Notes: generated by a model from the letters alone, not told the origin. A stretch of 64,000 bases of DNA from Chiloscyllium plagiosum (GCF_004010195.1 NC_057719.1:18497159-18561158); one strand, 5' to 3'. Positions 3,272-63,611 are shown, counted from the stretch's first letter. Numbers and translations are program-made.

Positions 3272-4075
3272 TGTTACCATAGTCTTATCAAACCATAAGG
3301 TGAAAGTGAGGACTGCAGATGCTGGAGATCAGAGTTGAGAGTGTGGTGTTGGAAAGTACAGGTCAGGCAGCATCCAAGGTGCAGGAGAATCGGCGTTTCG
3401 GGCAAAAGCCCTTCATCAGGAATGAGGCTGAGAGCCGAGGGGATGGTGAGAAAAATGGGGGGTGGGGGGGGGGTGGCTAAGGGTGTGATAGGTAGACAGA
3501 GGTGGGGGTAATGGTGATAGGTTGGAGAGGAGGGTGGAGGGATAGGTGGGAAGGAAGATGGACAGGTCATGAGGGCAGTGCCAACTTGGAAGGTTGCAAT
3601 GGGATATGGTGGGGTGAGGAAACTGGTGAAATCTACATTGATGCCTTGGAATTGGAGGGTCCTGAGGTGGAAGATAAGGCTTTCTTCATCCAGGCATTGA
3701 GTGGTGAGGGAGTGGTGATGGAGGGAGGGCCCAGGACCTGCATGTCTTTGGTGGAGTGAGAGGAGGATTTGAAGTATTCAGCCACAGGGCGGTGGGGTTG
3801 GTGGCATGGGTGTCCCTGAGATGTTCTCTGAATCGCTCCGCAAGTAAGCACCCTGTCTCCCCAATGTAATGAAGACCATAAGGCTACTCTGTCATTAGAA
3901 AGAAACAATTGATGGTGATTTAACCTGAGGGCTACCATACCTCAGGGAAGGGGAGAGGTTGAGAAGGTAGGTTTTCACAATGTAACTTCAGTCAGTGAGG
4001 GGAATTGAACCCATGCGATTAGCATCATACTGTTGTCAAAGCCAAGCAAGTAGCCAACCGAGCTGAAGAAGCCCT
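3272..4075 (-). mobile_element. tRNA-derived SINE, interrupted in its tail by a Penelope-like insertion
   Basis: Pol III A-box-like (rc cagctcggttgg, about 4054-4065) and B-box (rc gggttcaattcc, 4001-4012). The body resumes either side of the duplicated accataagg (3292-3300 and 3875-3883). Confidence 0.65.
3301..3874 (-). mobile_element. 5'-truncated Penelope-like element (GIY-YIG C-terminus + 3' UTR with hammerhead motif)
   Basis: Minus strand encodes YIGETG.LLAERFREH...HSTKDMQVLG, homologous to 58033-58791. Hammerhead motif at about 3388-3422 with the cleavage triplet changed to GCC. 9-bp flanking direct repeat. Confidence 0.9.
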
Positions 4076-5626
4076 AATGTTTGAATTTAAGATTTGTTTG
4101 ATTAGAGTTCATTTTTATAGTTATTTATTGTAATCAGAAATAAAAATGAGTCTATGTAGCACTTTTCATAATCACAGGTTGCCCCAAACCCAGTTAAGTC
4201 TTCACTCAGTTAAGTTTAGGCACTGTTAGAATGGTAACCATTCCCTTAAAACAGCCCTTTCACCCAACTGAGAGTAGCATATTTATTATAATGAGCGATA
4301 TCAAGATTGCCAATCAAGCTATTTTGATCCTTTCTTCATCAGGTTTACACTGAATGCATATGTATGCCTCTTGGAATAATAGGTGCATCTGAAGACAAAT
4401 ATTATTGAGAACAAACACATTGTATGATGGTCTTTGGTGGTTGGAAAGACCATTGCTATGACTGATTATTGGGTGACTGCCCATAATCTGTCATAATTCT
4501 GATAGGATACCAACCCCATTCCTAAGTGGTCATATTCCCAGGTGAGTAAGGATGATCTGGCTCCTCTGCTTAATTCAACCTCTCTCTCAGACCAAGGTCA
4601 CAAAATGGATAATTTTAAAAAGATCCCTTCCTTCATGGAATACCTTTTCCCAATCTAATTGTATTTACTAATTGTATTTATGTTTTTTAATGAGCCAAAT
4701 TAAGCAGGCTTTCTTGAGTGAAAGAAAGGACGAGTTGATTAGCTACTAAACATGAGAAATTATAATAAAATGTGACATGTGTACAATGTATTAGATTAAA
4801 AATGAAAATTGAGTAAAACTCTGTTGAAAACGTATATGAGCAGTCTCTGTGCCCCGTGAAGGGTAGATTATGGACATTGAAGCTATTAAGTTGGATCATA
4901 CTAGTAACACTGATGGTCGTAGTGAAGCAGTCATTTGGAGATTTTTGGCTCTTGTAATTTAGCTGGCAGGATTTTGTCCTGTTTATTTATCAATGATGGC
5001 TTCAATGGCTTTCCTGGCCTCAAGCACTCAGAGTGACACGTATTTTTTCTTTACCTGCAGCACAGGGGTGAGTAATGGCTGACTTAAACCTTCATATCAC
5101 ACTGGTGCATATTGTCACATCTGTCCACTAATGCACAGACCAGAAATTGCAGTTAGCTTTCAGCCTCCATTTTCTTGTATATTCATGGAAGGCTAAAGCA
5201 CAAACATGTCATCACATGGTTTAGAGCATACTCCACAGGTGATGACTTTCTGCTGAGAGTAGTAGTCAACATCTCATTATATCTGCAGTCACAAGAGCTT
5301 GTAGACCAGTTTATTTTGGATTACATCTCTCCTTTTGAGGGGTTGCTGTTTGAATATCCCTTGGCACCTCAGGCATCACATTCTAAGGTTTCTCTCAGGT
5401 CTTTGCCAGACACCAACTGAATTTTCATCCACAATTCTGTTTTGGTCATGTGTCCTCCTTTAAGAAAATATAACATGTGCTTTAATTAAAAGGTTAATGT
5501 TTGTAAATAATTCAGAGTTATAATCCATTGTCCTGAGACCTTACAAACTTTGAAGTGTTCAGTGGATGGAGCTGATGATTCTGGGCAAGAGCAAAGGAGT
5601 CCTGTCTCAATGAGAGGTGGTCAACA

Positions 5627-6499
5627 CAGAGTCATAGAATCATAGAGGTGTACAGCATGGAAACAGACCCTTCGGTCCAACCAGTCCATGCCGAACAGAT
5701 ATCCCAACCCAATCTAGTCCCACCTGCCAGCACCTGGCCCATATCCCTCCAAACCCTTCCTATTCATCTTCCCATCCAAATGCCTCTTAAATGTTGCAAT
5801 TGTACCAGCCTCCACCTCGTCCTCTGGCAGCTCATTCCATACACGTACCACCCTCTGAGTGAAAATGTTGCCCCTTAGCCTCTTTTATATCTTTCCCCTC
5901 TCACCCTAAACCTATGCCCTCTAGTTCTGGACTCCCCACCTCAGGGAATAGACCCTGTCTATTTACCCTATCCATGCCCCTCATAATTTTGTAAACCTCT
6001 ATATGGTCACCCCTCAGCCTCCGACGCTCCAGCGAAAACAGCCCCAGCCTGTTCAGTCTCTCCCTATAGCTCAGACCTTCCAACCCTGGCAACATCCCTG
6101 TAAATCTTTTCTGAACTCTTTCAAGTTTCACAACATCTTTCCAGTAGGAAGGAGACCAGAATTGCACTCAATATTCCAACTGTGGCCTAAACAATGTCCT
6201 GTACACCACAACATGACCTCCCAACTCCTGTACTCAATACTCTGACCAATAAAGGAAAGCATACCAAACTCCTTCTTCACTATCCTATCTACCTGCGACT
6301 CTACTTTCAAGGAGCTATGAACCTGCACTCCAAGGTCTCTTTGTTCAGCAATACTCCCTAGGACCTTACCATTAAGTGCATAAGTCCTGCTAAGATTTGC
6401 TTTCCCAAAATGCAGCACCTCGCATTTATCTGAATTAAACTCCATCTGCCAATTCTCAGCCCATTGGCCCATCTGGTCCAGATCCTTTTGTAATCTGAG
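5627..6499 (-). mobile_element. CR1 (HER1-like) LINE 3' fragment
   Basis: ORFs 6128-6472 and 5901-6167 give WQMEFNSDKCEVLHFG, QFWSP, LERVQKRFT and RRLRGD; tail shared with other copies. Confidence 0.95.
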
Positions 6500-7650: not shown

Positions 7651-7885
7651 TAATAATAAAAAAATTGCACACAGTTCACCAGTCTCCTATCTCTAGATTT
7701 TGGAAAATTCCTACTTTAACATATTTTCACCACTTGCTTCCAGGGAAATATTTCATTCTTAATGGTTGTTCTGAGGAGACACTCCCTTGAGTCTTGATCT
7801 GCACAAAATAGAAGTCTCCCTGAATCCTGTGAGCCTTCATGAAGAAAGCCTGACATTTAGATATTCTCAGGATCTTCCAAGGCTT

Positions 7886-8700
7886 TGAACAAAGAACAAA
7901 GAAAATTACAGCACAGGCACAGGCCCTTCGGCCCTCCAAGCCTGGGGCGATCCAGATCCTCTATCTAAACCTATCACTTTTTTTCTAAGGATCTGTATCC
8001 CTCTGCTCCCTGCCCATTCATGTATCTGTCTAGATACATCTTAAATGATGATATCGTGCCCACCCCTCCCGCCTCTGCTGGCAATGTCTTTCAGCCACCC
8101 ACCACCCTCTGCGTAAAAACCTTTCCACGTATATCTCCCTTAAACATTTTCCCTCTCACCTCGAACTCGTGACCTCTAGTAATTGAGTCCCCACTCTGGG
8201 AAAAAGCTCTTTGCTATCCACACTGTCTATACCCCTCATGATTTTGTAGACCTTAAGCAGTCACTCCTCAACCTCCGTCTTTCTAATTAAAATAATCCTA
8301 ATCTACTCAACCTCTCTACATAGATAGTGCCCTTCATACCAGGCAAAATCCTGGAGAACCTCCTCTGCACCCTCTCCAAAGCACCCATACCCTTTTGGTA
8401 ATATGGCCACCAGAATTGTACGCAGTATTCCAAATATGGCCAAACCAAAGTCCTAAACAACTGTCACATGACCTGCCAACTCTTGTACTCAATATCCTGT
8501 CCAATAAAGGAAAGCATGCTGTATGCCTTCTTGATGACTCTACTGACCTGCGTTACCACCTTCAGGATACAACGGACCTGAACACTCTGATCTCTCTGTA
8601 CATCCATTTTGCCCAGGGCTTTTCAATTTACCATTTAGTTCACTCCTGAATTGTATCTTCCAAAATGCATCACCTCACATTTGCCTGGCTTGAACTCCAT
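7886..8700 (-). mobile_element. CR1 LINE 3' fragment (gaacaaa-tail subfamily)
   Basis: Reverse complement contains TRGH, QFW.P and EVMHFG-type motifs; (gaacaaa)n tail, as at 55705. Confidence 0.9.
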
Positions 8701-9190
8701 AGGTGTGTACTGACTCTTTAAATAAAATCATAGTTTCATTCGAGATAAGTTTTAATAATTAACTGCAGCAGAGCAAGATGCACGGAGGTAAGAAGATGAT
8801 TTCAAAAAGGAAATTGAATAAGCATTTGGGGGAAATAAACTTTTAGCTCTATGGAAGTAGAAAGGGGAATTGGGACTGAACTGATTTCTCTAAAGAGAGA
8901 TGGAAAAGAATTGATATGTCAAATTATCATTTTTGCTTTATTACTGTGAGGACAGATACATTGGTTTGAGATTCAATCTTTGAGATTCAATTCAAGCTGA
9001 TTCCTACTTGTAAACTGAGTTGTAAGTGCAGCTTGAGGGTCAAGAATCATTGACAATCTTACACAGCCAAGTCGAAATGAGGCCTAAGTCATTTGAAGGA
9101 GAAAGTGAGGTCTGCAGATGCTGGAGATCAAAGTTGAAACTTTATTGCTGGAACAGCACAGCAGGTCAGGCAGCATCCAGGGAACAGGAG

Positions 9191-9226
9191 ATTCGACGTT
9201 TCGGGCACAGGCCCTTCTTCAGGAAT
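9191..9226 (-). ncRNA. Minimal type-I hammerhead ribozyme motif (PLE-type)
   Basis: rc = attc CTGAAGA a gggc ctgt gccc GAA ACGT C gaat; exact complement of 9585-9620. Confidence 0.8.
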
Positions 9227-9584
9227 GAGCAGAGAGTGTTCAGCAGGAGAAGATAAAAGGTAGGGAGGAGGGACTTGGAGGAGGGGAGTTGGAAATGTGA
9301 TAGGTGGAAAGAGGTCAAGGTGAGGGTGATAGGTCGGAGTAGGGTGGAGGCGGAGAGGTCAAGAAGAAGACTGCAGGTCAGGAAGGCGGTGCCGGGCTGG
9401 AAGGATCCTTCCAGCCCGGCACCGCCTTCCTGACCTGCAGTCTTCTTCTTGACCTCTCCGCCTCCACTCTACTCCGACCTATCACCCTCACCTTGACCTC
9501 TTTCCACCTATCACATTTCCAACTCCCCTCCTCCAAGTCCCTCCTCCCTACCTTTTATCTTCTCCTGCTGAACACTCTCTGCTC

Positions 9585-9620
9585 ATTCCTGAAGAAGGGC
9601 CTGTGCCCGAAACGTCGAAT
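9585..9620 (+). ncRNA. Minimal type-I hammerhead ribozyme motif (PLE-type)
   Basis: 4-bp stem I (attc/gaat), core CTGAAGA 9589-9595, stem II gggc/gccc, GAAA, palindromic ACGT stem III, GTC cleavage triplet ending at 9616. Confidence 0.8.
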
Positions 9621-10544
9621 CTCCTGTTCCCTGGATGCTGCCTGACCTGCTGTGCTGTTCCAGCAATAAAGTTTCAACTAAGTCATTTGAAGTCCTAGGA
9701 CATCACCATCGTACCTAAGTGTTGATGGCACCAATTCAATTGGAATCATGCAAGAGCTGAAAAGCAATCATTGTGTTGTGCAAAGACAGGACTTTGAAGT
9801 CTTATAAGATAATTTTCTAATACTAAGATAAGTCATAATTTTGGGGGAAGTTGGGGAAGGGGAGGAATCCAAGGTGAGGATAGGCCTAAAATTTCTTTCA
9901 AGTGCCTGGACCAACAAATATTGCTCCATCTGACTCAAATGAAAATCATGAAGAACCATATAAATTTGCTTTGCTGAATAGTCTGGGATCCATCACTGCC
10001 TAACCTACCAGGATGCACTTGACCATCAGTATGAATTGTGTGCTCTGGATGTCAAGATGGCCTTGGAGACCAAATGTCATGAGCTCTTGAATACTAATGA
10101 GGCTTTCATGTGCCTGCAAGCCCAGAAGTTAAAATAACAGCCCGTAGGACCAATGGGGAGGTCAATACCCAGATTATATTGTATGTGATTCGAATTCTCA
10201 TTAGGTAGGGGCAGCTGTGTTGGGAGGGCAGAGTGGTGGGAATTAAAACAAATGCCATTTAGCTGTACAATGTTATAAATGTTAATGCCTCTGTAGTCCA
10301 AAATGGAGCCAACTAGGGGAACTGGATATCAATACGTTCATTATCTGTGACTCAACACTGGGCAGTGCATCCTCTAAGTTATACACTTTGGTCTTAAGAG
10401 CTATTACAATTATAGTATGCTTCAAATCTGTTCTGTTGCTCATTTGGATCATTGTTCTTAGATTAACTCCATTTACCCACTATATTTGCATTTCCCTTAA
10501 TATTCCTGCCTAACAACAAACAAATTAAACAGTGCTTGGAAATT

Positions 10545-10705: not shown

Positions 10706-10714
10706 TATCAGAGA

Positions 10715-16842: not shown

Positions 16843-17556
16843 TAGAATCATAAAGTGATGCAGTGCAGAAATAGGCCATTCAGCCATTGTGCCTGTGCTA
16901 GCTTTTCAGATATCCAACTAGTTCCATTGCTGTTCTCTTTCCCCTGACCTTTTATAAATCTTTCCTCTTCCAATTTTTAATCAATTGACTTTACAAATGT
17001 ATTATTCAATATTCTTCTACCATTCTTTCAGGCATTACCTGACAGATCATAATGTTTCATTGTTTAAATCATTTTTCCTTGCATTGTCATAGAGATGCAC
17101 AGCACGGAAACAGACCTTCTGGTCTGACTTGTCTATGTCAACCAGATATCCGAACCTAATCTAATCCCATTTGCCAGCACTTGGTCCATATCCCTCCAAA
17201 TCCTTCCTATTTATATACCCATGCAGATGCCTTTTAAATGTTGTAATTGTAATAGCCTCCACCACTTTCCTCTGGCAGCTCATTCCGTATACGTACAACC
17301 CTCTGCGTGAAAAAGTTGCCCCTTAGGTCTCTTTTATATCTTTCTTCCCTCACCCTAAACTCATGCCCTCTAGTTCTGGACTCTCCCCCCACTGCTCCCA
17401 GGGAAAAGACGTTGTCTATTTATCCTATCCGTGTCCCTCATAATTGTATAGACCTCCAAAAGGTCACTCCTCAGCCTCTGATGCTCCAGAGAAAACAGCT
17501 CCAGCCTATTTAGCATTTCCCTCTTGCTCAAATCCTCCGAACGTGGCAACATCCTT
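16843..17556 (-). mobile_element. Two adjacent CR1 3' fragments (older about 16843-17080, younger 17086-17556)
   Basis: ORF 17370-17567 gives LNRLELFSLEHQRLRSDL; tails match the CR1 copies at 5627 and 29171. Confidence 0.85.
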
Positions 17557-19294
17557 GTCTTTGGCACTTTTGCAGCGATCTTAAACCTTTTTCATTGATT
17601 TTTCCACTACTTAGAAACATTTTATCCTTATTTACTCTATCAAATTGTTACTCTTCCAAATTTGAACATCTCTATCAAACCTTCTTGTTTAACCTCCTCA
17701 CTGGGAACAAGTACAAACCCATTTCTCTGGTCGTGCATGAGCCGAGTTTATGGAAAATGGAGAGCATGTGTTGGTAAGAGAAAGTGGAGTTGATAAAGGC
17801 CTGAATAAGCCTATTTGAAGCAGTTGGATTGATCAATGGCATGTGGATAATGTTACAGATGTGAAAATAGGCATCTTTGTGATGGAGCAGATATGAGGTC
17901 TGAAGCTCACTTTGAAGTCAAACAGAACAGCAAGCTTTCAAACAATCGAGTTAAACCAGAGGCAATGGAGAAGTGTTGAAGAAGGGTGGTTTAATTAACT
18001 ACACCACAGGTCCCTCTAAACAAAAAGTGAATAAAAACTCATGTACTACTAACAAGTCATTGGCCTGTCTCCAATCTCTGAAATGCCTTTCCTAACCTTC
18101 CCTGCCTCTCTCCACCAAATTCAAAAGCCCCATGAAAATATACATCTTAAAGCATGCCTTTGGTCACCTCCAGTACCTCAGCTTCCAGGTCCTGCTCAGT
18201 GCCTGTTATTGCTATATTAAATGGACACTGTATGAGCTCGTTGCTATTGCTAAATTACTATCAGGGCAAGATCGTTCTGTAGCACAAAATGTTAGAGAGA
18301 TGCTTTAAAGTAATGCTGCTGTCACAAAAATACTATTCATGATACATCTGAGAAAAACCTGTCAGAAAGATAAAAAGCCACCATTAAACAACTCACTCTT
18401 TAAAGGGACAAATTAATCCTGATCAGTCCACTCATTGTCATTAAATTTGCTGCGAGAATTTTGGAGATGTTCCCTTAAACGTCATGCAGAAGATGAAAAG
18501 CTGAATTCCTTTGGGACAGGCATTTTTTTTCATCATTATAGGAAATGTTATAACCATGAAATGCTCCATTTACTGATAATGCACCATTTTTACCTATTTT
18601 GCATAAATGCACTTTTAACAAATTGTCCAAACTGCAAAGAGGAATGTGAGTCACACTTTCTCTACAATTGTTTTGTCGAGGGAATTCAACCTGCCATGAT
18701 GTGAACGTGAAAGCTTTAACTGAAGCTCTGAAAGTTACTTTGTGAGGGCAAGCTCCACCCTAATTACTGTCGACCTATTCTCAATGCTATTGACGAACTG
18801 ATTGATTAACCACACTTACTTAAACACTATGGAGCTGATTTTAAGCCTGGGTGAGTTTGGATAGGCAGGAATGTGGTGAGCATGGAACATTTTTTGTGAC
18901 AGAAAATTCTAGGTCTGGGGTCTTTAACTCCAAGCTGTTGCAGAAAGGGAAGTGTGCACCCTTTGTTAGAGTTATTTGCAATGGCCCTCCAGAGGCATTC
19001 CTAATCTTAAAGGGACATTCTACTATCTTTAGCCTGGCAACCTATTACTGACCTGAAGTCAGTCTGTGAAAACAGCATGAATGGTTTAAACCAATAACCT
19101 GCCTTGTCAGATAAGGTTTCCTATTTAGCCAATTAAAATTAAGTCAAAATACTTAAGTCTTCATATAATCCATTAACAGAATGGGCGCCCCAATCTACTT
19201 CTATTTGATGCACACACCAAATCAATTCAAAATTGGATATATTTCCAGTGGAGAACTGAAATTGGTTAAGTGATGAATCTCTTGTTTATGTAAA

Positions 19295-21897: not shown

Positions 21898-22119
21898 TGC
21901 TGAGCTCCTTGAAGAGATTAGTGATTGATGAACTGGAGATCTCAGAAGTATTGGATACTTCTGAGAATTTGAATGATTTTATGCATGGGGACAAGGAGAA
22001 TAGGGGATGTGGGGTGCTAGGCCAGGGGAGAAAAAGAAATAAATATGCAGGGAGTCAATGAGGCACATACTTAACGTGAGCACACTTAGTCTTCTAAGTG
22101 CGACTCCTTTATCTTTCAT

Positions 22120-22245
22120 TCTGAAGAAGATTTGCTGGACCTAAAATGTTAACTACGCTTTCTCCCCACAGATGCTGCTGAGTTTTTGAGAAATTTCTAG
22201 TTTTTTTTTCCCTGGTTTCCAGCATCTGCAATTCATTGTTTCTTT
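22120..22245 (+). mobile_element. Decayed Penelope-derived 3' end (family C)
   Basis: ctgaaga...aaaatgttaac...cacagatgctgc...ttccagcatctgca: a degenerate hammerhead plus the PLE tail motif. Confidence 0.6.
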
Positions 22246-22890: not shown

Positions 22891-25196
22891 ATTTGATATC
22901 GGAGGGTTGACAACCCTTGACAACCACAGGACGGTACAGGAAAGGGCATTGGTGTTCTCACCTCCACATTTGCAACTTGTGACTTAGCAAATCATTATCA
23001 ATTTAATAAAACTATACATGCCAAGATGCTGTGATCAATGCACACCATAGCTTATTGAGGGGAGTATCATTGAGAGGCATTTCCCCTTTCAGGAGACTGC
23101 AAGGTTAAAATGAAACTGTTTATGAATGGACATGTGGAAATGGGGATGGGCATTGTGGGTGGTATGGTGGCAGTTTTGTTTTTGTCCAGATGCCTGTGAG
23201 TTCATCTATATTTGCTGGCACTTTACAATCTTGGCCCTCACCCCCCCCCCCCCAATCTACAACTGAAAGAACAGCTTCTCCAAACAAAGCCAATTAAGGG
23301 TTAACCCTTTTACTGGGTCATATCACTTCTGGGCCGACGTGAAGGCACAGAGCTGGCAGATTGGCTGTTTTCTAATACATGAAACTGACACTTTCCATCA
23401 CTGAGGGAGATAGAGACACTGCAGGTGTGCTAGGCTGAACTCACACAGTGCCCCAGTGGAGAAATAACACTATGATAATTCATGCTAACATCTCACAGCA
23501 CAGGTTGACTCAAGGAGTTTTTTTTTTCTCTCTGGCGAGTGTCTCATGCTGTTTTCTCTGATTCCTGCTTCCTCGTTAACCCGAGCCTGGTCCATGCAAC
23601 ATCTGCGGGATCTGTACTATTAGCTTACACAGATTGAGGTGCCAGCCTAGGGATTTGGGGGCCAATAACATATGCAGATTGGGCCACGGAACAGCAAGGT
23701 AACTCGGTGGTTGGAGAGAGGGATAAAAAAAAGTGCTCTCTCATTTAGCTTCGGCCTACTACCTTCTGTTTGAATTCGATTAGATCTCAGAGCTATAAAG
23801 TCACAGGGTGGGGAGTTCTGTGTCATTACATTTCATGGCTCCTGTTTAAGGCCATTTGATTACAATATGGAAACACTTACAAGCAGCCGTTTGCAGATGT
23901 GTAAGGGAGCCTGCCGGCATTACGCTAAAATTGATTTGCTTAATATGGAACAAAACATTAACTTGTTCAGTGCCGAAATACCTTTCTTATTTGTGAGTGG
24001 GTTGGAGCAAGAAATAAATGTGATGGTAATTATTTTTAACAATCTTTAGCAAGACTTTCCTGGAAGCTACAGGGTGAGAAAATAATACTGCCTGGCCTGT
24101 CACACACTCCAAAGTAAATTTTACTCCTTTGTGCTCTGCTTTGTATCACTGCTTTCAATTGCAGTTGTGATTTTAAAATCTTCAGATGTATGTAGCTTTT
24201 CTAAATGTATGAAATGGCTGCCTGAATCATAGGCAAAAGTATTTTAAAATTCTAATTTTGCATTATTATATGTATCAAATATTCCTCTAAGGAAATTAAC
24301 TTTTATGAAGATGAGGTGATGATTGTAAACTGCTGGAGCTCATTTACGCCACCTCTCGATTGAATGGGTATCTTGTTATCCATTTCTAAGTAGCTGTTAT
24401 CCTCTGTGTGACTGCATGATGACTGTTGCATATAACAATAAGGTAAGCTTTCTGTCTGCCAAACATATTTCCATCATGCAGCATATGGTTTCACATTGTC
24501 TTAGGTTTCTGTCTTTGCTAGCCAAATGGAATAGACACAACAGAGTCAAGGGCACATACATAAGGCTTACATCTATGCTCCCATTAATTCATAGACATTT
24601 TAAGTTGCTAATGCCAGAAGATGGTGTTCTGATTTAGGATGTGTCAACTTGGAATGACCATTTGTATTTTCTTTAGAATGTGTATGGAATTTGCAATTTA
24701 TTTTAAGAATATTTGAAGGACTTTTATGGGATGGTGCTGATTATAACAGGAAAAGTCGTTATTTTCTTAGATAATAAGATACCAATGCATGTTACTTCAT
24801 GACCCTTGACCTGCAGACAGCGCCAACAGGAAGGAGATTAAGAATATATGGCTAAAACACGTGAAGCAAAGTTGCAAACGGACAGAGCTACAAAACTAAA
24901 GGGAGTGGAGGGAGAACACATATAAGTGCACAAAGAGAAAGCAGGCAAGAACAGAAAGAATAATGGAGAGATTGGTGTGAGGTAAAGAAGCAAAGGACTC
25001 TCAAGAAGAAAAGGAGACAGGATCACTTGGGGATACTATGCAAGCTGGTTAAAGAGGCTTAAAACCCGGAAAATCTTGTGATTATTTGGGAGACATTCAG
25101 GACCCAGGATTTAGCCCGACCAGATTTCTCTCTCTGAAGGAAATCAGAAGAGATTTAATGACAATCAACAATGGTTACAAAGTCACCACTATCCTA

Positions 25197-25322
25197 GAGT
25201 TACGATTAGGGTTAAGTTTAGGGTTAGGGTTAGGATTAAGGTTTGTGTAAGATTAGGGTTAGGGTTTGGGTAAGGGATGAGTTTAAAATTAGGGTTCGGG
25301 TAAGGGTTAGAGTTAGTGTTCA
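25197..25322 (+). repeat. Degenerate interstitial (TTAGGG)n-like tract
   Basis: About 20 hexamer-phase units, with several perfect TTAGGG and variants (ttagga, ttaagg, ttcggg, ttagag). Confidence 0.8.
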
Positions 25323-36151: not shown

Positions 36152-36245
36152 TGACAAAGTCAGAAGTCACACCACAGCAGGTTAGACTCTAACAGGTTTA
36201 TTTGAAATCACAAGCTTTCAGAGTGCTGCTCCTTCATCAGGTGAA
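36152..36245 (-). mobile_element. Hammerhead-bearing short element (family B), single arm
   Basis: rc = cac CTGATGA aggagcagcactct GAA AGCT T gtg ...aataaacctgtt...gtgacttctgactttgtc. Confidence 0.8.
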
Positions 36246-43044: not shown

Positions 43045-43156
43045 TTGATGTTGGAAATCTGAAACAATTGCAAAGAGTGCTGGAGAAACTCAGCGGGTCT
43101 GGCAGCATCTGTGGAGAGAGGAAGAGTGTTAACATTTTGAGTCCAGTATAACTCCC
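43045..43156 (-). mobile_element. Penelope-derived 3' end (family C), single arm
   Basis: gatgttggaaatctgaaa...tgctggagaaactcagcgggtctggcagcatctgtggagagag...ttaacattttgagtcc. Confidence 0.75.
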
Positions 43157-44486
43157 CTCTGAAGTGGTCTAACAAGCCACTCAGTTTAAGGGAAATTAAT
43201 CCTGGCCTTGTCAATGATGCCTATATCCACAAAAGAATTTTTCAAATCAGTTTTGTTATTGTTAAACCATTAAAAATTAAAATAAACAGATAAACTTAGC
43301 CAATAATGCTTCTGTTGGTATATCCAGTCTCTGACATCATGGAAGACTTCTAGTGTACCCTCAGAAAATGCATGTTCCTTATCCACTCTGGTACAGGCAA
43401 GACTTGGAACTAAAGGAGTGGACAGACAGACCAGTGTCTGTATCCACTATGGGCCAGTAAATGGCCAACTTTGCCAGGCCAAAATGCAGGTCTGCAAAGA
43501 GATTCTCCAGCCTGCACCGCAGTAAATCAGGTGACTAGCATCCAGGGCCACACTGCACTGCAGCTGCTAAAATACATAAAGGCACTGAAAAGAGAAAGTC
43601 AAAAAGGAACTCTGTGAATCTGAACAGTTTATTGCTCAAATAAAACCTAATGCCAAGAGCTGACAACTGTGTTATGGAGGGTTCCACCTTGTGTAACTGT
43701 GAATTTTCACCACAGTCACGGCTGGATGGTGAGATGTGGGACATGTAAGGGCATCACTGCTTCACAGTGTAACAACATTGTGGTGGTTACCCAGAACCAT
43801 GCAGCCATGCAGTAAAATATTGTCTTCCCCAGCATTTGATTTTTAGACTGAGAAAAAAAAACCAAGAAAATTATCAATATTTCTGACTTCTACCTATAAG
43901 TGTTGCAATCATATGACAAATGTCAAACTTTGTGATACAATGTCTCACCAGTCCTTACGGTTTGCTGTTATACCAGTTGCTAAGAGCTGCACTTTGGTCA
44001 TCAACTGGTACCAAGGGACTAAGTTCTGAAACTCCTTCCCTAAATATTTGTCTCTGTATGTCTCTCTCGCCCTCTCTCTTTTTCCTCCTCTAATATAGCT
44101 TAACATCTTCAACTGAGCCTTTTCGACACCAGTCTTGATAACACCATACCCAGCCCAGCGTCAATTTGATGACACATCCATTCACCACCTTGTCAGGTTT
44201 TACTACTTTGAAGAGGTTGATTTTGAGGATTATCTTGAATCATGGGAGAAGGGTCGGGAAATAGAGAGGTTTAAGGAGGGAATTCCAGAACTTAAGGCCA
44301 AAGGAACTGAAGGTAAGAGCCACAGATTTCTTTCTTTATTTAATTAAAATGTGGAGTGTGGGTGTTGCTGGCTAGCCAGCATCCCTAGTTGCCCTTCAGA
44401 ATACGGTGGTGTGCTGACTTCACAAACCATTTCAGTCTACCTGCTGTGAGCTGACCCACCATGTTGTTCGGGAGGGAGTTCCAGGA

Positions 44487-44810
44487 TCAGGAAGCGGAGA
44501 AGTCAATGTGTCGGGTGTTACCTTTCTTCAGGACTGGGGGTGTGTGTGGGGGGAACTGCAGATAAGGAGGGGGGGGAGGTGAGAGGAGGGGTGGTGTGGT
44601 GAGATGGGGTTAGGTTAACACAGGGTATGGGTATGATCTGGTTGGTCGATGGGAGGGACGAATCCGGTTGGTAGCTGGAAAGAGGGGTCATTCAGAGGAA
44701 TGGAAGGTATTGGGTGGGGCTGGGAAATAGTCCGGTGATGGAAAGGGAGGTTATTTGACATTCTAGTCATGAAGAAGGGTTACACTGGAAACATCGACTT
44801 CTCTGCCTCC
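44487..44810. mobile_element. Decayed Penelope-derived insertion with unequal inverted arms (possible fourth family)
   Basis: Antisense hammerhead remnant at about 44495-44535 and sense remnant atgaagaagggttacactggaaacatcgac at about 44765-44800. Between them is G-rich PLE-type 3' UTR sequence. Confidence 0.65.
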
Positions 44811-53530: not shown

Positions 53531-53532
53531 TT

Positions 53533-54935: not shown

Positions 54936-55008
54936 TATTGTGCCCTTGATTTCCTATGATTCATATGGAAAAGCGTTCGCGAAACATATTGGGCAAGATG
55001 ATCTTAGT

Positions 55009-55347: not shown

Positions 55348-56875
55348 AAATGAGGAGGGTTGAGCTGTTCTGATAAAGTTTACCTCCTGAAGAAAGTTCA
55401 GAATATCAAAGCTGCCCATTAATTGAATCTTTGGTAGTTTGTCATTGGAGCTTCACCCTCACGATTTAACCCCTCGATGAGTTGTGATGAAAAACAAAGC
55501 GTTTCACCTATGACTCATTGTCTGATTCATCTTCCGACTGATTCAATGGTAAGTAGCAGTAAACATTCTCACAGAGAAATCCAAGAACCTTTGCTTCTCT
55601 ACATCACTATAGATTCCAACAATAATACATTTCACCCCCGTTACCATTCATTTCAGTATTTTGTGTGTCATTCTGAAGTATGTTCAACAGCGAATGTGTT
55701 ATAAAAAGAACAAAGAAAATTTACAGCCCAGGAACAGGCCCTTCAGCCCTCCAAGCTTGAGCCGATCCAAATCTACTGTCTAAACCAGTCGCCCAATTCC
55801 TAAGCATCTGTATCCCTCTGCTTCGCACCTACTCATGCATCTGTCCAGACGCACCTTAAATGAATTTACCGTGCCTGCCTCTATTACCTCTGCTGGCAAC
55901 GCTTTCCAGGCACCTATCACCCTCTGTGTAAAGGACTTTCCACGTGTATCCCCCTTAAACTTTTCACCTCTCACCTTGAACGCATGACCTCTCATTATTG
56001 AATCCCTCACCCTGGGAAAAAGCTTATCTCTATCCACCCTGTCTATGCCCTTCATGATTTTGTAAACCTCAATCAGGTCACCCCTCAATCTCCTTTTTTC
56101 TAATGAAAACAATCCTAACCTACTCAACCTCTCTTCGTAGCTAGCACCTTCCATACCAGGCAACATCCACGTAAATCTTCTCTACACCCTCTCCAAAGCG
56201 TCCACATCCTTTTGGCAATGTGGCAACCAGAACTGTACACAGTATTCTAAATGCTGCTGAACCAAAGTCTTGTATAATTTTAACATGACCTGCCAGCTCT
56301 TATACTCAATACCCCATCCGATGAAGGCAAACATACCATTATGCCTTCTTGACCACTCTTTCCACCTGTGCAGCCACCTTTACGGTACAATGGACCCGAA
56401 CTCTCAGATCTCTCTGCTCATCAACTTTTCCCAAGGCTCTTCCATTTACAGTATAGTTTGCTCTTGAATTGGACTTCCCAAAATGATCACCTCACATTTG
56501 CTCGAATTGAACTCAATCTGCCACTCCTCCGCCCAACTCTCCAGTCTATCTGTATTCTTTGACAGTCCCTATACGGTCTGCTGCTCCACCAATCTTCGTG
56601 TCATCTGCAAACTTACTGATTAGACCAACAGTGCCCTCTTCCAGATCATTTATGTATATCACAAACAACAGTGGCCCCAGCACTGACCCCTGTGGAACAC
56701 CACTGGTCACCTTTCTCCATTACGAGAAACTCCCTTCAACTACTACTCTCTGTCTCCTGTTGCTCAAACAGTTCTTTATCCACCTAGCGAGAACATCCTG
56801 CACACCATGTGACTTCACTTTCTCCATTAGTTTACCATGGGGAACCTTATCAAATGCCTTACTAAAGTACATGTA

Positions 56876-57493: not shown

Positions 57494-57830
57494 TATATGA
57501 TATCTACAACCCTTCCTTCATCTATCAACTTAGTCACTTACTCATAGAACTATATTAAGTTGCTAAGGCACGATCTCCTCCACACAAAACCATGTTGTCT
57601 ATTGCTGATAAGCCCATTCTTTTCCAAATATAAAAAGATTTTATTCCCCAGTACCTTCTCCAGCAACTTTCCCACCACTGCGTCAGGCTCAATGGTTTGT
57701 AGTTACCTAGAATCTCCCAACTACCCTTCTTGTACAGGGGGAAAGTGAGGACTGCAGATGCTGGAGATCAGAACTGAAAATGTGTTGCTGGAAAAGCGCA
57801 GCAGGTCAGGCAGCATCCAAGGAGCAGGAG

Positions 57831-57866
57831 AATCGACGTTTCGGGCATGAGCCCTTCTTCAGGAAT
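57831..57866 (-). ncRNA. Minimal hammerhead ribozyme motif in the PLE 3' UTR
   Basis: rc = attc CTGAAGA a gggc tcat gccc GAA ACGT C gatt, on the PLE sense strand. Confidence 0.8.
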
Positions 57867-59000
57867 GAGGAAAGTGTGCCAAGCAGGCCAAGATAAAAGT
57901 TAGGGAGGAGGGACTTGAGGGAGGGGCGCTGGAAATGCGATAGGTGGAAGGAGGTTAAGGTGAGGGTGATAAGGTGAGGGTGATAGTCCAGAGTGGGGGT
58001 GGAGGCGGAGAGGTCAGGAAGAAGATTGCAGGTTAGGAAGGTGGTGCTGAGTTCGAGGGTTGGGACTGAGACAAGGTGGGGGGAGGGGAACTGAGGAAAC
58101 TGGAGAAATCTGAGTTCATCCCTTGTGATTGGAGGTTTCCTCGGCGGAAGATAAGGCGCTCTTCCTCCAGCTGTCGTGTTGCTATGGTCTGGTGATGGAG
58201 GAGTCCAAGGACCTGCATGTCCTTGGTGGAATGTGAGGGGGAGTTGAAGTGTTGAGCCACGGGGTGGTTGGGTTGGTTGGTCTGGGTGTCCCAGAGGTGT
58301 TCTCTGAAACGTTCCGCAAGTAGGCGGCCTGTCTCCCCAATATAGAGGAGGCCACCTCGGGTGCAGCGAATGCAGTAAATTGTGTGTGTGGAGGTGCAGG
58401 TGAATTTGTGGCGGATATGGAAGGATCCTTTGGGGCCTTGGAGGGAAGTAAGGGGGGAGGTGTGGGCGTAAGTTTTGCATTTCTTGCGGTTGCAGGGGAA
58501 GGTGCCGGGAGTGGAGGTTGGGTTGGTGGGGGGTGTGGACCTGACGAGGGAGTCGCGGATGGAGTGGTCTTTTCGGAATGCTGATAGGGGAGGGGAGGGA
58601 AATATATCCCTGTTGGTGGGGTCCGTTTGGAAGTGGCGGAAATGACGACGGATTAGACGATGTATATGGAGGTTGGTGGGGTGGTAGGTGAGGACCAGTG
58701 GGGTTCTGTCCTGGTGGTGTTTGGAGGGGCGGGGCTCAAAGGCGGAGTTGCGGGAAGTGGAGGAGATGCGGTGGAGAGCATCGTTGATCAACTCTGGGGG
58801 GAAATTGCGGTCTTTGAAGAAGGAGGCCGTTTGGGCTGTTCGGTATTTGAACTGGTCCTCCTGGGAGCAGATACGGCGGAGATGAAGGAATTGGGAATAT
58901 GGGATGGCGTTTTTACAAGGGGCAGGGTGGGAGGAGGTGTAGTCTAGGTAGCTGTGGGAGTCGGTCAGTTTATAGTAAATGTCCGTGTTGATTCGGTTGC

Positions 59001-59334
59001 ATTACATTACATTACATTACAGTGTGGAAACTGGCCCTTCGGCCCAACAAGTCCACACCGACCCGCCGAAGCGTAACCCACCCATACCCCTACATTTACC
59101 CCTTACCTAACACTATGGGCAATTTAGCATGGCCAATTCATCTGACCTGCACATCTTTGGACTGTGGGAGGAAACCAGAGCACCCGGAGGAAACCCATGC
59201 AGACACGGGGAGAACGTGCAAACTCCACACAGTCAGTCACCTGAGGCGGGAATTGAACCCGGGTCTCTGGCGCTGTGAGGCAGCAGTGCTGACCACAGTG
59301 CCACCGTGCTGCCCACTGCCACCGTGCCGCCCAC
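59001..59334 (-). mobile_element. HE1-type SINE inserted in the PLE ORF
   Basis: Full HE1 with an (attac)n tail and a short duplicated head (gccaccgtgc.gccc twice). Confidence 0.95.
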
Positions 59335-60579
59335 ATAGATAGAAATGGAGAGGTCTAGGAAGGGGAGGGAGGAGTCTGAGACAGTCCAGGTAAATTTGAG
59401 GTCGGGGTGGAAGGTGTTAGTAAAGTGGATGAACTGTTCAACCTCCTTGTGGGAGCATGAGGCAGCGCCGATACAGTCATCGATGTAGCGGAGGAAAAGG
59501 TGGGGTTGGTGCCAGTGTAGGTGCGGAAGATGGACTGTTCCACATATCCTGCGAAGAGGCAGGCATAGCTGGGTCCCATGCGGGTGCCCATGGCTACTCC
59601 TTTGGTTTGGAGGAAGTGGGAGGATTGGAAAGAGAAGTTGTTCAGAGTGAGGACCAGTTCAGTCAGTCAAAGGAGGGTGTCAGTGGAAGGATACTGGTTG
59701 GTACGGCGGGAAAGGAAGAAGCGGATGGCTTTGAGTCCTTCGTGATGGGGGATGGAGGTGTACAGGGACAGGATGTCCATGGTGAAGATAAGACCGGGGA
59801 AGCGAAAATCATGGAGGAGGTGGAGTGCGTGAGTGGTGTCCTGAACGTAGGCTGGGAGTTCTTGGACTAAGGGGGACAGGACCGTGTTGAGGTATGCAGA
59901 GATGAGTTCGGTGGGGCAGGAGCAGGCTGAGACAATGGGTCGGCCGGGGCAGTCAGGTTTGTGGATTTTGGGCAGGAAGTAGAAACAGGCGGTGCGAGGT
60001 TGTGGGATTATGAGGTTGGAGGCGGTGGATGGGAGATCCCCTGAGGAGATGAGGTTATGGATGGTCTGGGAGATGATGGTTTGGTGGTGGGAGGTGGGGT
60101 CACGGTCAAGGGGGCAGTAGGAGGAGGGGGACAACATGAGCAACCCTCCAGTCCTCTGCCACTTCACCTGTGTTTAAGGATGCTACAAAGATAGCTGTCA
60201 GGGCCCCAGCTATTTCCTCTCTTGCCTCCCTCAGCAACCTGGGATCCCCAGCAATCTGGTCCTGGGGATTTGTCCACTTTAATATCCTTTAGCCTATCCA
60301 ACACATCTTCCCTCCTTATGTTAAAGTGATCCAGAGTAAACAAACTTCTATCTCTAATCTCAACATTCATCAGGTCCCTCTCTTCAGTGTGCACTGATGC
60401 AAAGTAATCATTGAGAATCTCACCCATTTTCTCAGGTTTGACACAGAACCCTCCTTGCTTGTCCTTTAGTGAGCAATATAAATTATAAATTTGCATAAAC
60501 ATGAATAAAAAAGAGCACGAAGTGAGAAGGAAGATTTGAATGTATACTAGTGAGGTGTGCAAATAAGATAGAGATATAA

Positions 60580-61085
60580 ATAGAAATTGCTGGAAAAGCT
60601 CAACAGTTCTGGCAGCAATTAGAGAAATTAGAGTTCACGTTTCAGGTCAAGTGACCCAAGGAAGTTCTGAGAGTTAACATTGATTTAGAACATAGAACAT
60701 AGAAAAGTACAGCACAGAACAGGCCCTTTGGCCCACGATGTTGTGCCGAGATTAAATCCTAATGTAAAATATAGTAACTTAACCTACGCACCCCTCAACT
60801 TACTGCTATCCATGTGCATGTCCAACAGTCACTTAAATGTCCCCAATGACTCTGCTTCCACAGCTGGCAATGCATTCCATGCATTCACTTTTCTCTGCGT
60901 AAACAACCTACCTCTGATGTCTCCTTTATACCTTCCTCCTAATATCTTCAAAGTATGACTTCTCATATCAATCCATCCTGCCCTGGGGAAAAGTCTCAGG
61001 TGCTGCGAGACCTGCTGAGCTTTTTCAGCAATTTCCATTGTTTGTCTCCAATTTACAGCATTTGCAGTTCTTTACGTTTTTATTA
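60580..61085. mobile_element. Family-C Penelope-derived palindrome with a nested CR1 fragment (60686-60997, minus strand)
   Basis: Arms gaaattgctggaaaagctca / tgagctttttcagcaatttc and tail cagcatttgcagttcttt. Direct repeat aagatagagatataa (60565-60579, 61086-61100). The CR1 part gives FTQRKVNAWNALP. Confidence 0.85.
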
Positions 61086-63611
61086 AAGATAGAGATATAA
61101 TTGAGAACCTTATGATCAGGTGAAATCTAGGACGGAAAACATTATGGGCTGGGTGGCATGTAGAACAGCAAAGATGTTACAATTCAAACTATTAGAATGA
61201 TGGGCATTGATAATTGCAATCATTAGAATGGTAAGATGCATAAAAGTGCAAGTGTTATAACTGAAAGCTTCCACATTAAGGATGCATAACAGAAAAAGAT
61301 GTTTAAACATGGGAAACATGACGTACCTAAACAAAAGCTGATTGAAATATGATTGAAATATGGATTATGATTTTGTTGCTCTTAAGATGATTCTGCTTTG
61401 TCCAATTTTGCATGAGATAGATACAATAACACTATTTCTTGTTTATGACCTCAAAATTCTGTGATCACTCTGATTAGAGACTCCCAGGTTGGGCATTAAA
61501 TTAAGCAAGTTCCAATAATCCTGTTTATTACTGCCATTTCTAAACAACTTTGATATATCACTAACATGCAATGTTAAAATGCAACAAAATACATGCAAGG
61601 CAATCATTTTATTCAAAACTGCACCTTTTCAAGAGACATGTTGGATCTATTATTTATTTAATGTAGTCTTTCCATAGTTTTTAATATCGTTATTTCCCCT
61701 AAAACCGACTGAAAGTTGTAATAGGGTTTTGCAATGAAATGCTAATTTTTCTATTTGGTGACTCAATATAGCAAATAATTAATACATTTCAAATTTGAGA
61801 AAAAAATCAGAATGGTTAAATTAAAATATAAAGCTATTAAAAAGTTAGAAAAGGAAAAAATATAGTAAAAGTAAGAAAGAAAATTGCCAAAACAAATATG
61901 TCTATGAAAATAGTAAAATAATTCTTAAGGAAATAAAGTATATGTTACATTGAAAAATAATTATTGCTGCTACCATTAGCCTATTGTGGCTGTTGACAGA
62001 AGTGTATATTTTGCAGGAGATGATGAATTTCCCACATTCAGTTTATGTTGAAAAGGGGAGGATTTGGGAGGCTGAATACGAGTTCCAGGCAAGTTGGCTG
62101 GGACTGCTCAGCCTGAATGACTAGTTCTTCCAGCCCAGTATAAGTGGGTATTCAAAGGTTACACCGCCCTCTTCTATTTTGTACAATAAATGACACTTTT
62201 GCATCTGAGGTACATATTAAAACACATACAAGAGAAAACAAAATCTAAAATCATTATTTTAAAAAGCTATAATCAAAGACAACTTCATACTTGAAGAAAT
62301 GAAGCCTCTGTATAATTGGCTGGTATAGGGATGAATTAGGTCACTCTGTACTGTTTAAGAATGACAGTGCCCCTTCTTCATATACCATTTAGATTGTAGG
62401 TTTTTATTATTCCTGCCATTGACACCGGCATTGTTGCAGATATCAAAAGTTCAAGAAAGCTTCACTTGTTCAGTCAACATTGCACAGATGCTTCAATGAG
62501 GTCAAGCCCTGTAAACAGTGACAAACTATTTTCTAGTTTATGAAACATAAAGCACGTTTGTGGGCATGTAAGGTAATAAATCGCATATTTATATAAAACT
62601 GATTAGTTTAATGAAGAATAAGAAATTTCTAGATAGAGGAAGCCTGCACTATTCCAAGGAGACATGAAACAATCACTGCCATAAATTTGAGACGCCCTCA
62701 ATATAAGGAAATGCAAAAAAATGAAGTGACAATAGAGGGGAGTTCCTTCTGAAAGTGCTACGAGTTAATGAACTTTATAAACTATGTTTATTATTCAATA
62801 TATCACAAACCTCTGTTCTCCAGTCAGATTTCAATAACACTGATTACACTGTCCAAAAGCTTGCATTGCAGCTGGAGCAGTTGCTATGTCAGTGCAATAG
62901 GATAGCCCTAGTTTCACCCTTCCTTCTTATAATGATACAACCCCATTAAGACATGTTGCGAAGACTTTTACTCAGCAGTATTGCTTATGAACATAATAAG
63001 CATAGTGGGAACCTCGCAAAGTATGGGGAGGGAAATTGAGAATGTGTTTATTCGGGGCTGACAGCTTTGATGCAAACAGCGAAGGGAAAGTTTGGGAGGG
63101 CGATGGGAAATGCAAGAAGCCAAGGTGCAGAGGGCTGGTTAGTGTGGTGAGATTTTGGTGGTGGGGGGGGGGGGTGGAATGTGGAGATGAGAACTGTGTT
63201 TGCTGGGAAACTAGAGAGAGTTGAGGATTTCAAGCTTTTAAACACAGTTGAGAAATTTAAGCCAGGACAGGTCAGTGAGGATTGTATGATGAACAAGCAA
63301 AACTTGATACAAAATGGGAAATGGAGCAACACCAACAAACTGGATAGGCAGCCAGTGGGTTATTAGGATAGCCAAAACTCAAAGCAAATCGTATACAATC
63401 AACCACTTGTTGTAAAATGGCTCGCAGTCTTTAGGCCAATGTGGCAGTCACTTTGCATGAAGTCAGATTCCTTATAGAGCAATAAGAATAATTACCAATT
63501 AATCAATTTTTAAAGCTGAAGAGATATTTGAGACAGGATGTTGGAAGCTATCCTTAGTTTATTTGAATAGTGCCAGGGACTCTGTTTTGGTTTGGGACCT
63601 TACTTAATTAC

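Follow-up and report, generated by a model that had tools for sequence, protein, structure and literature searches.

The short hammerhead-bearing hairpins found in a 64,000-nucleotide stretch of Chiloscyllium plagiosum DNA (the window, the whole stretch analysed) are, judged by their sequence, 5′-truncated end-pieces (pLTRs) of endonuclease-positive Penelope-like elements (EN+ PLEs) in families A and C, and family B is placed with them by likeness. They are very probably by-products of PLE insertion that were not copied as hairpins, and the inverted arm was likely newly built at each insertion through two coupled primings on the cut target. The best explanation overall, held with moderate confidence, joins these two parts, taking the copies as pLTR stubs of EN+ PLEs whose inverted arm arises afresh, from a coupled pair of primings, whenever one inserts. 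What lies behind the hairpins is most likely a known kind of element leaving one-off products, rather than a new self-copying class.

An inverted pLTR, a tail of 30-40 nt and a hammerhead are already published for PLEs; the window adds the pairing of a tailed with a tail-less end (11/11), three copies beyond simple fold-back and a predicted helix equally placed in A/C and in unrelated B. The formation of tandem and inverted PLE structures is still termed undefined (PMC8557442), and the one in vitro PLE study leaves open the steps after priming (PMC11167929). A literature search (most subscription papers and Repbase/Dfam notes lay outside its scope) returned no published account of shark PLE stubs, coupled two-site priming or the tail helix. 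For annotation, such PLE debris is easily mistaken for MITEs or microRNA precursors; for mechanism, dense young stubs bounded by target site duplications (TSDs) let counting separate a two-primer from a fold-back model, and the predicted helix is a defined mutagenesis target.

Catalogue of copies

Positions within a copy were counted from the C of the hammerhead core, positive downstream and negative upstream of the core. Tail offsets (in nt) were read by eye from alignments, with TSD overlaps. Eleven inverted insertions were recorded, and at all 11 an antisense piece is followed by a sense piece; the architecture of inverted arm, sense arm and tail given for these loci in a preliminary description was confirmed throughout. 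The arms measure 25 to 274 nt and the inserts about 120 to 580 nt. Self-BLAST of the window gave 12 local inverted pairs, of which 0/12 were symmetric, equal-ended hairpins. Tailed, tail-less, short and long copies form a single series, about 20 loci in 64 kb, and PLE stubs plus long copies occupy about 6.2 kb of the window.

The family A inverted copies comprise A9099 (9099..9677, −), a palindrome with 274-nt arms and 1 mismatch whose turn at 9405/9406 lies about 190 nt 5′ of the core (offset 33-37; TSD 9084-9098 / 9678-9692, 15/15); A27656 (27656..28105, +), in which an inverted arm (-13..+89), a direct pLTR with tail, a 68-nt spacer and a second pLTR with tail follow one another and the three 5′ ends lie at -11, -12 and -13 (offset 34-39; 14-bp TSD, 14/14); A35051 (35051..35180, −; offset 47-50; TSD 13/15); the hairpin A41741 (41742..41943, +), with the inverted arm reaching -5, the sense arm starting at +15 and a joint with 3-nt microhomology (offset 33-36; 15-bp TSD, 15/15); and the hairpin A53533 (53533..53760, +), with arm starts at -6 and -4 (offset 38-40; TSD 11/12). 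The reading of all these loci as hairpins failed for A35051, whose arms do not overlap (-4..+77 and +81..+126).

Family B contributed B36327 (36328..36497, +; inverted arm +40..+82, sense arm about -2..+120; offset 37-39; TSD 12/13), B41237 (41236..41688, +; offset 36-38), where a SINE (~41359-41678) sits within the tail and is followed by the last tail bases, the hairpin B48911 (48911..49075, +; inverted arm to +15, sense arm from +34; offset 38-44; 9-bp TSD, 9/9) and the old hairpin B52946 (52947..53180, +; offset 35-36), whose arms both begin ~4-5 nt 5′ of the core around a spacer of ~17 nt. B48911 lies inside an L2-like LINE RT frame, and the host reading frame continues across the site when one TSD copy is kept. 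Family C has the old hairpin C22662 (22661..22893, +; offset ~33-35) and C60580 (60580..61085, +; offset ~46-48; 15-bp TSD, 15/15), the centre of which is broken by a LINE 3′ fragment (~60685-60990).

Solo copies with a tail were A3297 (3298..3874, −), which reaches a decayed GIY-YIG end (9-bp TSD, 3292-3300 / 3875-3883), A13498 (13498..13617, +), which starts inside hammerhead stem II (16-bp TSD), and a decayed C copy (22119..22245, +) absent from the earlier list. Two were tail-less, namely A25504 (25501..25677, −; probable 11-bp TSD, 25490-25500 / 25678-25688, equalled in 2/150 random searches), which carries ~80 nt of additional upstream sequence, and a B copy (36153..36245, −) with an intact-looking core and an 8-bp A-rich TSD (null fraction 0.011). 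A further decayed C solo copy (43048..43165, −) stops ~12 nt into the tail, and two decayed A-like hammerhead fragments were noted at 44482..44640 (−), with an upstream pyrimidine-rich UTR, and at 44764-44808 (+). Compared with 34 PLE proteins (best E 0.29) and with the rest of the window, no match was obtained for the B tails, for the 68-nt spacer within A27656 or for the 80 nt preceding A25504. A crude splice scan of the window identified no host exon.

Link to an RT and GIY-YIG element

Family A is tied to a coding element by a long, 5′-truncated PLE copy (57737..60130, −) that carries an RT with YIDD, a cysteine linker, GIY-YIG, a 3′ UTR, a hammerhead (core start 57862) and the tail. It thus holds the single ORF with RT and C-terminal GIY-YIG of EN+ PLEs, though truncated and broken: the copy is dead, with a stop and a frameshift, and is split by a SINE at 58999-59337. 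Its GIY-YIG matched PF01541 (E 1.5e-5) and its RT part is 83-88% alike to P0015, in which RVT_1 is present; searched on their own, the two stop-free RT fragments gave no Pfam match. The hammerhead core at 57862 (−) lies ~170 nt downstream of the stop codon, so that the pLTR with hammerhead stands 3′ of the ORF, as in EN+ PLEs. The linker between RT and endonuclease reads C-x4-C-x2-Y here and C-x4-C-x2-C in the relatives P0008, P0010, P0018 and P0022; family A thereby has the Zn-finger-like cysteine motif of the Neptune clade (PMC8557442), and a motif of this kind occurs in Nematis as well. This long copy is itself nested in a CR1-like LINE fragment.

The short copies showed no diagnostic change relative to the ORF-linked pLTR, and the youngest of them (at 27968) differed from it in 0 of 73 columns. 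No full-length pLTR-ORF-pLTR partial tandem was present in the 64-kb window; A27656 has that outline without the ORF.

Family C aligned to family A from hammerhead to tail (nhmmer E 1e-9 to 1e-11 in both directions) and is a diverged relative of A, its link to a PLE running through this homology to the A pLTR. The window therefore holds two unrelated families (A/C and B) in place of the three separate ones initially proposed. No ORF adjoins the C copies and no long B or C copy occurs in the window. For family B, motif scans of metagenome contigs and of viral contigs gave 0 matches each, no B-adjacent protein match was found in the window, and three short B motifs had no match in a literature text search. 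A protein-based scan of metagenome contigs yielded 81 pattern matches with 0 confirmed. By analogy of its ends, hammerhead and helix position, family B appears to work like a pLTR.

Hammerhead motifs

A motif search of the 64-kb window found 12 strict minimal hammerheads (10 in family A, 2 in B, 0 in C) against 0.06 expected (maximum 1 in 100 shuffles), and ~15 further decayed or partial motifs were recognised by eye, so the initial estimate of about 20 full or partial motifs was fair. The motifs have the core boxes, stem II, a palindromic 15.2-16.2 and no loop 3, and they share with the minimal hammerheads of metazoan PLEs the extra base before stem II and the G-C closing pair (PMC4209133). 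An Rfam search of the window returned no hammerhead family up to E 1, because minimal motifs escape the Rfam models, and gave only below-threshold generic miRNA-like hairpins. Motifs paired on opposite strands at 100-700 bp, as well as single ones left by truncated PLEs, are described in PMC4209133, where 4,000 and 9,000 motifs per genome were termed remarkable; the 12 strict motifs here correspond to ~190 per Mb, in one window only. As the copies retain an uncut core and begin upstream of it, the hammerhead is likely a passenger in their making.

Ends, tails and target site duplications

Against a null of 1000 random boundaries (maximum score 8), 8/11 inverted copies had significant TSDs of 9-15 bp, all above the null maximum, and B41237, B52946 and C22662 had none above chance in the same test. 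The direct repeats of 9-16 bp earlier assigned to most copies were thus upheld at eight of the 11 loci. A degenerate TSD of B41237 past the SINE (9/12) was not above chance and was left uncounted. The two ends of the 9-16 bp range came from the solo copies A3297 (9 bp) and A13498 (16 bp), and over the 8 inverted and 4 solo copies taken together TSD length varied from 8 to 16 bp, as in PLEs.

All 11 inverted copies carry a 5′-truncated inverted piece and a tail at one end. The supposedly constant offset was borne out in 9/11 copies, which fall within 33-44 nt, and not in A35051 and C60580, which at 46-50 nt are ~10 nt longer; the median of the mid-points was 37. Two end positions recur: E, the end of the tail, at ~+125 in A and +120 in B, and X, an inner site, at ~+89 in A and between +82 and +85 in B. 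In every inverted copy an E end is paired with an X end (11/11; probability at most 0.0005 if ends were independent), with nine X ends at the usual site and two ~10 nt further 5′. Solo copies use either, E in 3297, 13498, 57737 and 22119 and X in 25504 and 36153. The 5′ end falls at -13..-4 in 4/9 family A insertions (5 if 25504 is counted as short). The idea of X as a splice acceptor was dropped: A and one C copy end in ...CAG, but this ending is absent from B and from other A subfamilies, and the position of X shifts by several bases.

Predicted helix in the tail region

In A/C a helix pairing +44..52 with +100..108 was predicted unaided on 12 copies, with 97% of cells paired and its columns more conserved than the remainder (0.96 vs 0.80). 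In B a 9-bp helix (+47..55 with +95..103) was obtained in 3/3 copies tested and in 0/2000 shuffles at the matching place; RNAalifold favours pairing of that 3′ strand with +61..70 instead. In both unrelated families the 3′ strand of the predicted helix lies in the tail, between X and E. The outer A/C helix showed no two-sided change and a covariation score no better than shuffles (243/500), and the folding of single copies did not surpass that of shuffles (z -1.1 to +0.35).

Sequencing reads

Two public DNA runs gave their best-supported joints at 57737/41 (E) and 57774/77 (X), each defined by its two sides only. A top pile of loose ends with unrelated flanks was at 57866 (-3; agreement 0.31; 332 and 356 contigs). 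DNA depth over the pLTR was ~10x that over the ORF, with a sharp 5′ boundary and a nearly flat ORF profile over 1.1 kb; this excess is inflated by subfamilies in which the pLTR is shared and the ORF is not, and it does not give a copy number. Loose ends at 57772-57786 are in part subfamily differences, and since these break alignments there, the 57772 joints were set aside as a sign of non-overlapping arms. In the poly(A) single-cell RNA run X21, which could hardly show them, 4073 reads on both strands gave no pile of starts or ends; 91% of the reads continue into unlike sequence.

Formation of the inverted arm

In the proposed mechanism the RT-endonuclease would cut both target strands 9-16 nt apart. 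One strand would prime cDNA at E and its partner at X; these would correspond to the pair of internal start sites described for the anole PLE, and their placement would likely be set by the predicted helix, whose 3′ strand lies between them. Both cDNAs would likely copy the same RNA, the E-primed displacing the X-primed. Each would end at an RT stall or at the RNA start, often 4-13 nt 5′ of the core, as expected if priming were often in the upstream pLTR of the message. The cDNA ends would be joined head to head, with a blunt joint, a microhomology of 2-4 nt or some filler, and one short cDNA alone would give a solo copy, tailed or tail-less. We consider two-site priming probable, give run-off from the upstream pLTR an even chance, and rate a single RNA shared by both cDNAs slightly below that.

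The turn points differ in 11/11 inverted copies, which indicates that the hairpins were built at each insertion and not copied as units. In A35051, A41741 and B48911 the 5′ reach of the inverted arm exceeds that of the sense arm, a geometry that fold-back of a first cDNA cannot give. Where family A hairpins have overlapping arms, the partner arm was the nearest or tied-nearest of 14 arms (4/4). The in vitro work on anole Poseidon PAc reports that both target strands are cut and extended on uncut RNA from two internal start sites bounding the tail, with priming 3′ of the hammerhead in the stem-loop region, as proposed here, and it leaves inverted arms unexplained (PMC11167929); the earlier suggestion that the offset mirrors a priming step is likely right, two internal RT start sites being the published explanation of the PLE tail. 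Family A differs from PAc in its Neptune-type cysteine linker and in its strict one-E one-X pairing. Because the anole enzyme shows no strand difference in start site, the E/X coupling is not reproduced in vitro.

The case for two-site priming rests on 11 inverted copies in one 64-kb window. Against it, unequal arms could have arisen when a palindrome centre was later deleted, shared arm variants could stem from repair or conversion between arms, two offsets lie at 46-50 nt and family B is without an ORF link. A wider reading, put forward tentatively, is that PLE integration is inherently two-ended: the enzyme would grip a helix downstream of the hammerhead and, on the same RNA, prime one strand immediately 3′ of this helix and its partner within the loop, the cDNAs being joined head to head. 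If so, one rule would account for tail, inverted pLTR, tail-less copies and pLTR-sized stubs alike, the helix common to two unrelated families would be the cis element, and independent snapshots of the reaction would be present in shark genomes by the hundreds of thousands.

The same PLE by-products might instead acquire their inverted arm by self-priming, the cDNA folding back and being recopied until the protein-bound tail blocks it, with unequal arms as later deletions. We regard this as rather unlikely. Self-priming has been put forward for rotifer PLEs on the strength of palindromes at their junctions (PMC3846280), accounts unaided for one E and one X end, and agrees with the arms of one insertion being nearest neighbours and with the perfect palindrome at 9132-9679 and its self-complementary centre; the perfect 274-nt palindrome fits fold-back and two-site priming equally well. 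The three copies (3/11) with the further-reaching inverted arm, one without any overlap, speak against it, as do the tail-less solo copies with TSDs (25504, 36153), which use X without a hairpin, and the in vitro use of X as an RT start site (PMC11167929).

A similarly doubtful proposal bears on the template and fits either model of priming: short non-autonomous source RNAs, either solo pLTRs or retrozyme-like tandem units, would be mobilised in trans by the enzyme of the PLE, with the hairpin still built at insertion. The sharp 5′ boundary and roughly tenfold pLTR excess over a flat ORF profile, the two direct hammerheads of A27656 lying 206 nt apart with no ORF between, and the lack of a long B or C copy in the window suit it; so do non-autonomous PLEs known in Chlamydomonas (PMC8557442) and the derivation of animal retrozymes from pLTRs (bioRxiv 10.64898/2026.07.22.740005). 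However, hammerhead-bearing tandem arrays numbered 0 among 23 TRF rows, the short copies lack any diagnostic change from the ORF-linked pLTR, copies start upstream of the core, whereas a cleaved monomer would start at the cut site (+28/+29), and run X21, its library hardly able to show one, had no RNA-end pile.

That the hairpins are self-propagating non-autonomous ribozyme retroelements copied whole, the strong form of the preliminary description, is highly improbable and was contradicted: abundance (11 in 64 kb) and a common outline suggest it, but junctions differ in 11/11, arms range from 25 to 274 nt, and solo and ORF-bearing copies have the same ends. Non-autonomous DNA transposons (MITEs), to which short hairpin-forming inserts with flanking direct repeats could point, are hardly credible and are refuted for A and C, since 33-50 nt are unpaired at one end in 11/11 copies in place of symmetric terminal inverted repeats, TSDs (9-16 bp) and insert sizes (~120 to 580 nt) vary, and A/C belong to an RT element, with only B lacking a direct link; the view that these are Penelope-type products has held.

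Comparison with known systems

In L1 twin priming the second target strand primes on the RNA, giving a 5′ inversion with junction microhomology, and the second site is variable and the arms do not overlap. A35051 shares this non-overlapping geometry; the other copies differ in that the second site is nearly fixed here and the arms usually overlap.

Animal non-LTR retrozymes (PMC7229834; bioRxiv 10.64898/2026.07.22.740005) are likewise short, non-coding, pLTR-related and flanked by long TSDs, with a type I hammerhead. Unlike those elements, which are arranged head to tail and often have canonical hammerheads and circular RNAs, the copies here are dispersed, head-to-head or solo, with minimal motifs. 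TRF found no head-to-tail tandem of at least 2 hammerhead units in the window, the only copy with two direct motifs being A27656 (~1.6 units).

The architecture is the standard one of EN+ PLE insertion units (PMC3846280; PMC8557442), with 5′ truncation, an adjacent inverted 5′-truncated copy, an optional 30-40 bp tail at one end, a pLTR hammerhead, TSDs (8-10 bp are reported for those units) and palindromes at the inverted junction. Unlike those units, the copies here mostly hold little beyond the pLTR, are very dense (~20 loci in 64 kb) and include two offsets of 46-50 nt.

Inverted insertions and hammerhead motifs

Each of the 11 loci listed in the preliminary description as hairpins of three hammerhead-bearing families (A, B and C; loci are named by family and position) does carry, in the window, an antisense piece with a sense piece after it, but A35051, whose arms do not overlap, is not a hairpin. 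The analysis drew on the 64-kb window, public sequencing runs, a protein search and published papers. Direct repeats had been claimed at most loci; target duplications (TSDs) of 9–15 bp were identified at 8 of the 11, each above all 1000 random boundaries, but at three none exceeded random boundaries. Strict minimal-hammerhead motifs numbered 12 against 0.06 in shuffles (10 in family A, two in family B) and about 27 once decayed and partial motifs were added by eye, in keeping with the earlier estimate of about 20 full or partial motifs.

Positions within elements take the hammerhead-core C as +1, with E as the outer tail end and X as the inverted-arm end. The X-to-E offset, previously described as constant, was 33–44 nt in alignments of nine of the 11 inverted copies but 46–50 nt in A35051 and C60580, the ranges arising from 1–3 nt of overlap between element ends and TSD.

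Family identities

The ORF-bearing long copy of family A runs on the minus strand from 57737 to about 60130, with a GIY-YIG domain, a cysteine linker, a SINE (58999–59337) and an RT region upstream. The RT region is 83–88% identical to an RVT_1 protein, the nearest named proteins in the protein search were from Chiloscyllium punctatum, and domain sets like those of Penelope-like elements (PLEs) were present in all 34 longer relatives found. A second, decayed piece lies at 3298–3874. Since the long copy carries RT and GIY-YIG regions and the short copy at 27968 is identical over 73 columns to its hammerhead-bearing end (pLTR), the short pLTR insertions (stubs) of family A are, on sequence grounds, PLE 3' ends; judged by its cysteine linker, the family is probably of Neptune type. 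The proposed PLE origin was therefore upheld for A through its tie to this ORF and for C through homology. The division into three families held for B, which has only the hammerhead core in common with A, but C is, by its likeness, a diverged relative of A. No family B ORF was found in the window or by motif scans of metagenome and viral contigs, and B is filed with PLEs by behaviour, not membership.

Junctions and coupled ends

The 5' stops of the inverted and sense arms, respectively, were -190 and -190 in A9099, -13 and -11 in A27656, -4 and +81 in A35051, -5 and +15 in A41741, -6 and -4 in A53533, +40 and about -2 in B36327, +61 and +23 in B41237, +15 and +34 in B48911, and about -4 and -5, with a spacer, in B52946; the junctions of the two inverted family C copies differ from each other. 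Because the 11 inverted insertions have 11 distinct junctions, the inversion arises at insertion and the hairpins are not copied units, which leaves the suggested new element class of hairpins unsupported. Solo copies with a tail (3297, 13498, 57737 and 22119) and without one (25504 and 36153) fill out one series with the inverted copies.

Every inverted copy combined one E end with one X-type end, never two alike (11 of 11; probability at most 0.0005 if ends were independent), and symmetric hairpins were absent from a self-BLAST of the window, which would have revealed them. The 5' stops gathered at -13 to -4 in four of nine family A insertions (three arms of A27656 alone stop there), a cluster for which the binomial calculation used an assumed background of 5%.

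Public sequencing runs

About 166,000 and 169,000 contigs from two public DNA runs, representing two organisms, were aligned to the long copy. Contig depth, which is not copy number, was roughly 10 times higher over the pLTR than across the ORF and changed in a step on the hammerhead's 5' side; the peak is inflated by subfamilies having the pLTR but not the ORF in common. Among the joints listed, the best supported in both runs were at E and X. In both, loose ends whose flanks were unrelated also accumulated at -3, beside the cluster of 5' stops. Over the long copy, an RNA run gave read-through on either strand, and no discrete ends were seen. Single contigs in both DNA runs joined the tail end to about +38, just past the hammerhead cut site, over a short shared motif (57825, 57741); these joints possibly represent short tandem units.

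Proposed mechanism

With uncut RNA as template, the purified anole PLE cleaves and extends the two strands of its target, starting at two internal sites whose spacing gives the tail (PMC11167929). The earlier attribution of the offset to priming agrees with these start sites. In the simplest joint reading, one target strand would prime at E and the opposite strand at X, each cDNA would stall or run off the RNA 5' end, and both would be joined head to head. We prefer a version in which one RNA would template both cDNAs with strand displacement, because the partner arm was the nearest or tied-nearest neighbour in all four testable copies and equal stops at -190 would come most easily from one RNA end. 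As a whole, a two-ended mechanism on a single RNA is offered tentatively, as a rather doubtful proposition.

Run-off from an upstream pLTR would fit, by analogy, the transcript start inside the pLTR of Drosophila virilis Penelope (PMC8557442); short non-autonomous source RNAs may instead have served as templates and would produce the same picture. The likeness of partner arms may reflect repair between them rather than a shared template. Fold-back, the priming of cDNA on itself, may explain the inverted arms if followed by deletion; the inverted arm extends further 5' than the sense arm in three of the 11 inverted copies, so that fold-back of the first cDNA is insufficient for their geometry unless the centre was later lost. 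A MITE reading fails on asymmetric ends, variable TSD length and, for families A and C, the RT link.

Predicted helix downstream of the hammerhead

RNAalifold on 12 A/C copies predicted a helix of +44 to +52 with +100 to +108, plus an inner helix; 97% of cells in the outer helix pair, and helix columns were the best conserved (0.96 versus 0.80). A 9-bp helix of +47 to +55 with +95 to +103 was predicted in all three family B copies tested, and at the matching place in 0 of 2000 shuffles; an alternative partner was also predicted for its 3' strand. In A/C and B alike, X lies about 10–13 nt before the predicted 3' strand and E about 17–18 nt past it. Two-sided change was absent from the A/C outer helix, which scored no better for covariation than shuffles did, and folding energies of the copies were unremarkable. 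The predicted helix is a possible cis element and is treated as a lead.

Comparison with known systems

Earlier PLE reports describe inverted 5'-truncated copies with 30–40 bp tails (PMC8557442, PMC8969392), TSDs of 8–10 bp, a 31-bp tail and junction palindromes, with self-priming proposed (PMC3846280), and minimal hammerheads together with truncated copies and motif pairs on opposite strands (PMC4209133). Retrozymes are described as tandem elements derived from pLTRs (PMC7229834; bioRxiv 10.64898/2026.07.22.740005). The present elements are real and abundant, and mostly ordinary PLE products; the main points of interest are the testable E/X coupling and the predicted helix. Within a limited coverage of the literature, no publication was found on shark PLE stubs, coupled E/X use or the helix. 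L1 twin priming is a further comparison case.

Nested and duplicated sequences

The 68 nt after a family A tail at 27900–27967 occur once in the window and matched no PLE protein; they are likely the beginning of an element body. About 80 nt of unassigned sequence at 25598–25677, enclosed by the probable TSD of a family A copy that has no tail, may be captured flank or UTR of another subfamily. Younger SINE/LINE pieces lie inside PLE copies (58999–59337, 41359–41678 and 60685–60990), and PLE copies are nested in LINE fragments (48911 and 57737); this nesting could date the families. A local inverted duplication of 70 nt, with copies 93% alike (41017–41085, minus strand; 41298–41367, plus strand), crosses the junction of a family B tail and a SINE head, so it is later than the SINE insertion. 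Local direct duplications at 49305–49604/50545–50844 (90%) and 50116–50342/51029–51255 (96%) both sit where L2-like LINE 3' ends and SINEs cluster. A decayed telomere-like hexamer array of 21 copies occupies 25195–25320, with a weaker match near 1577. Seven LINE 3' fragments, which we take to be CR1-like from their peptide pattern, lie at 5628–6499, 7884–8700, 17086–17558, 29171–30129, 37826–38729, 39241–40431 and 55705–56875.
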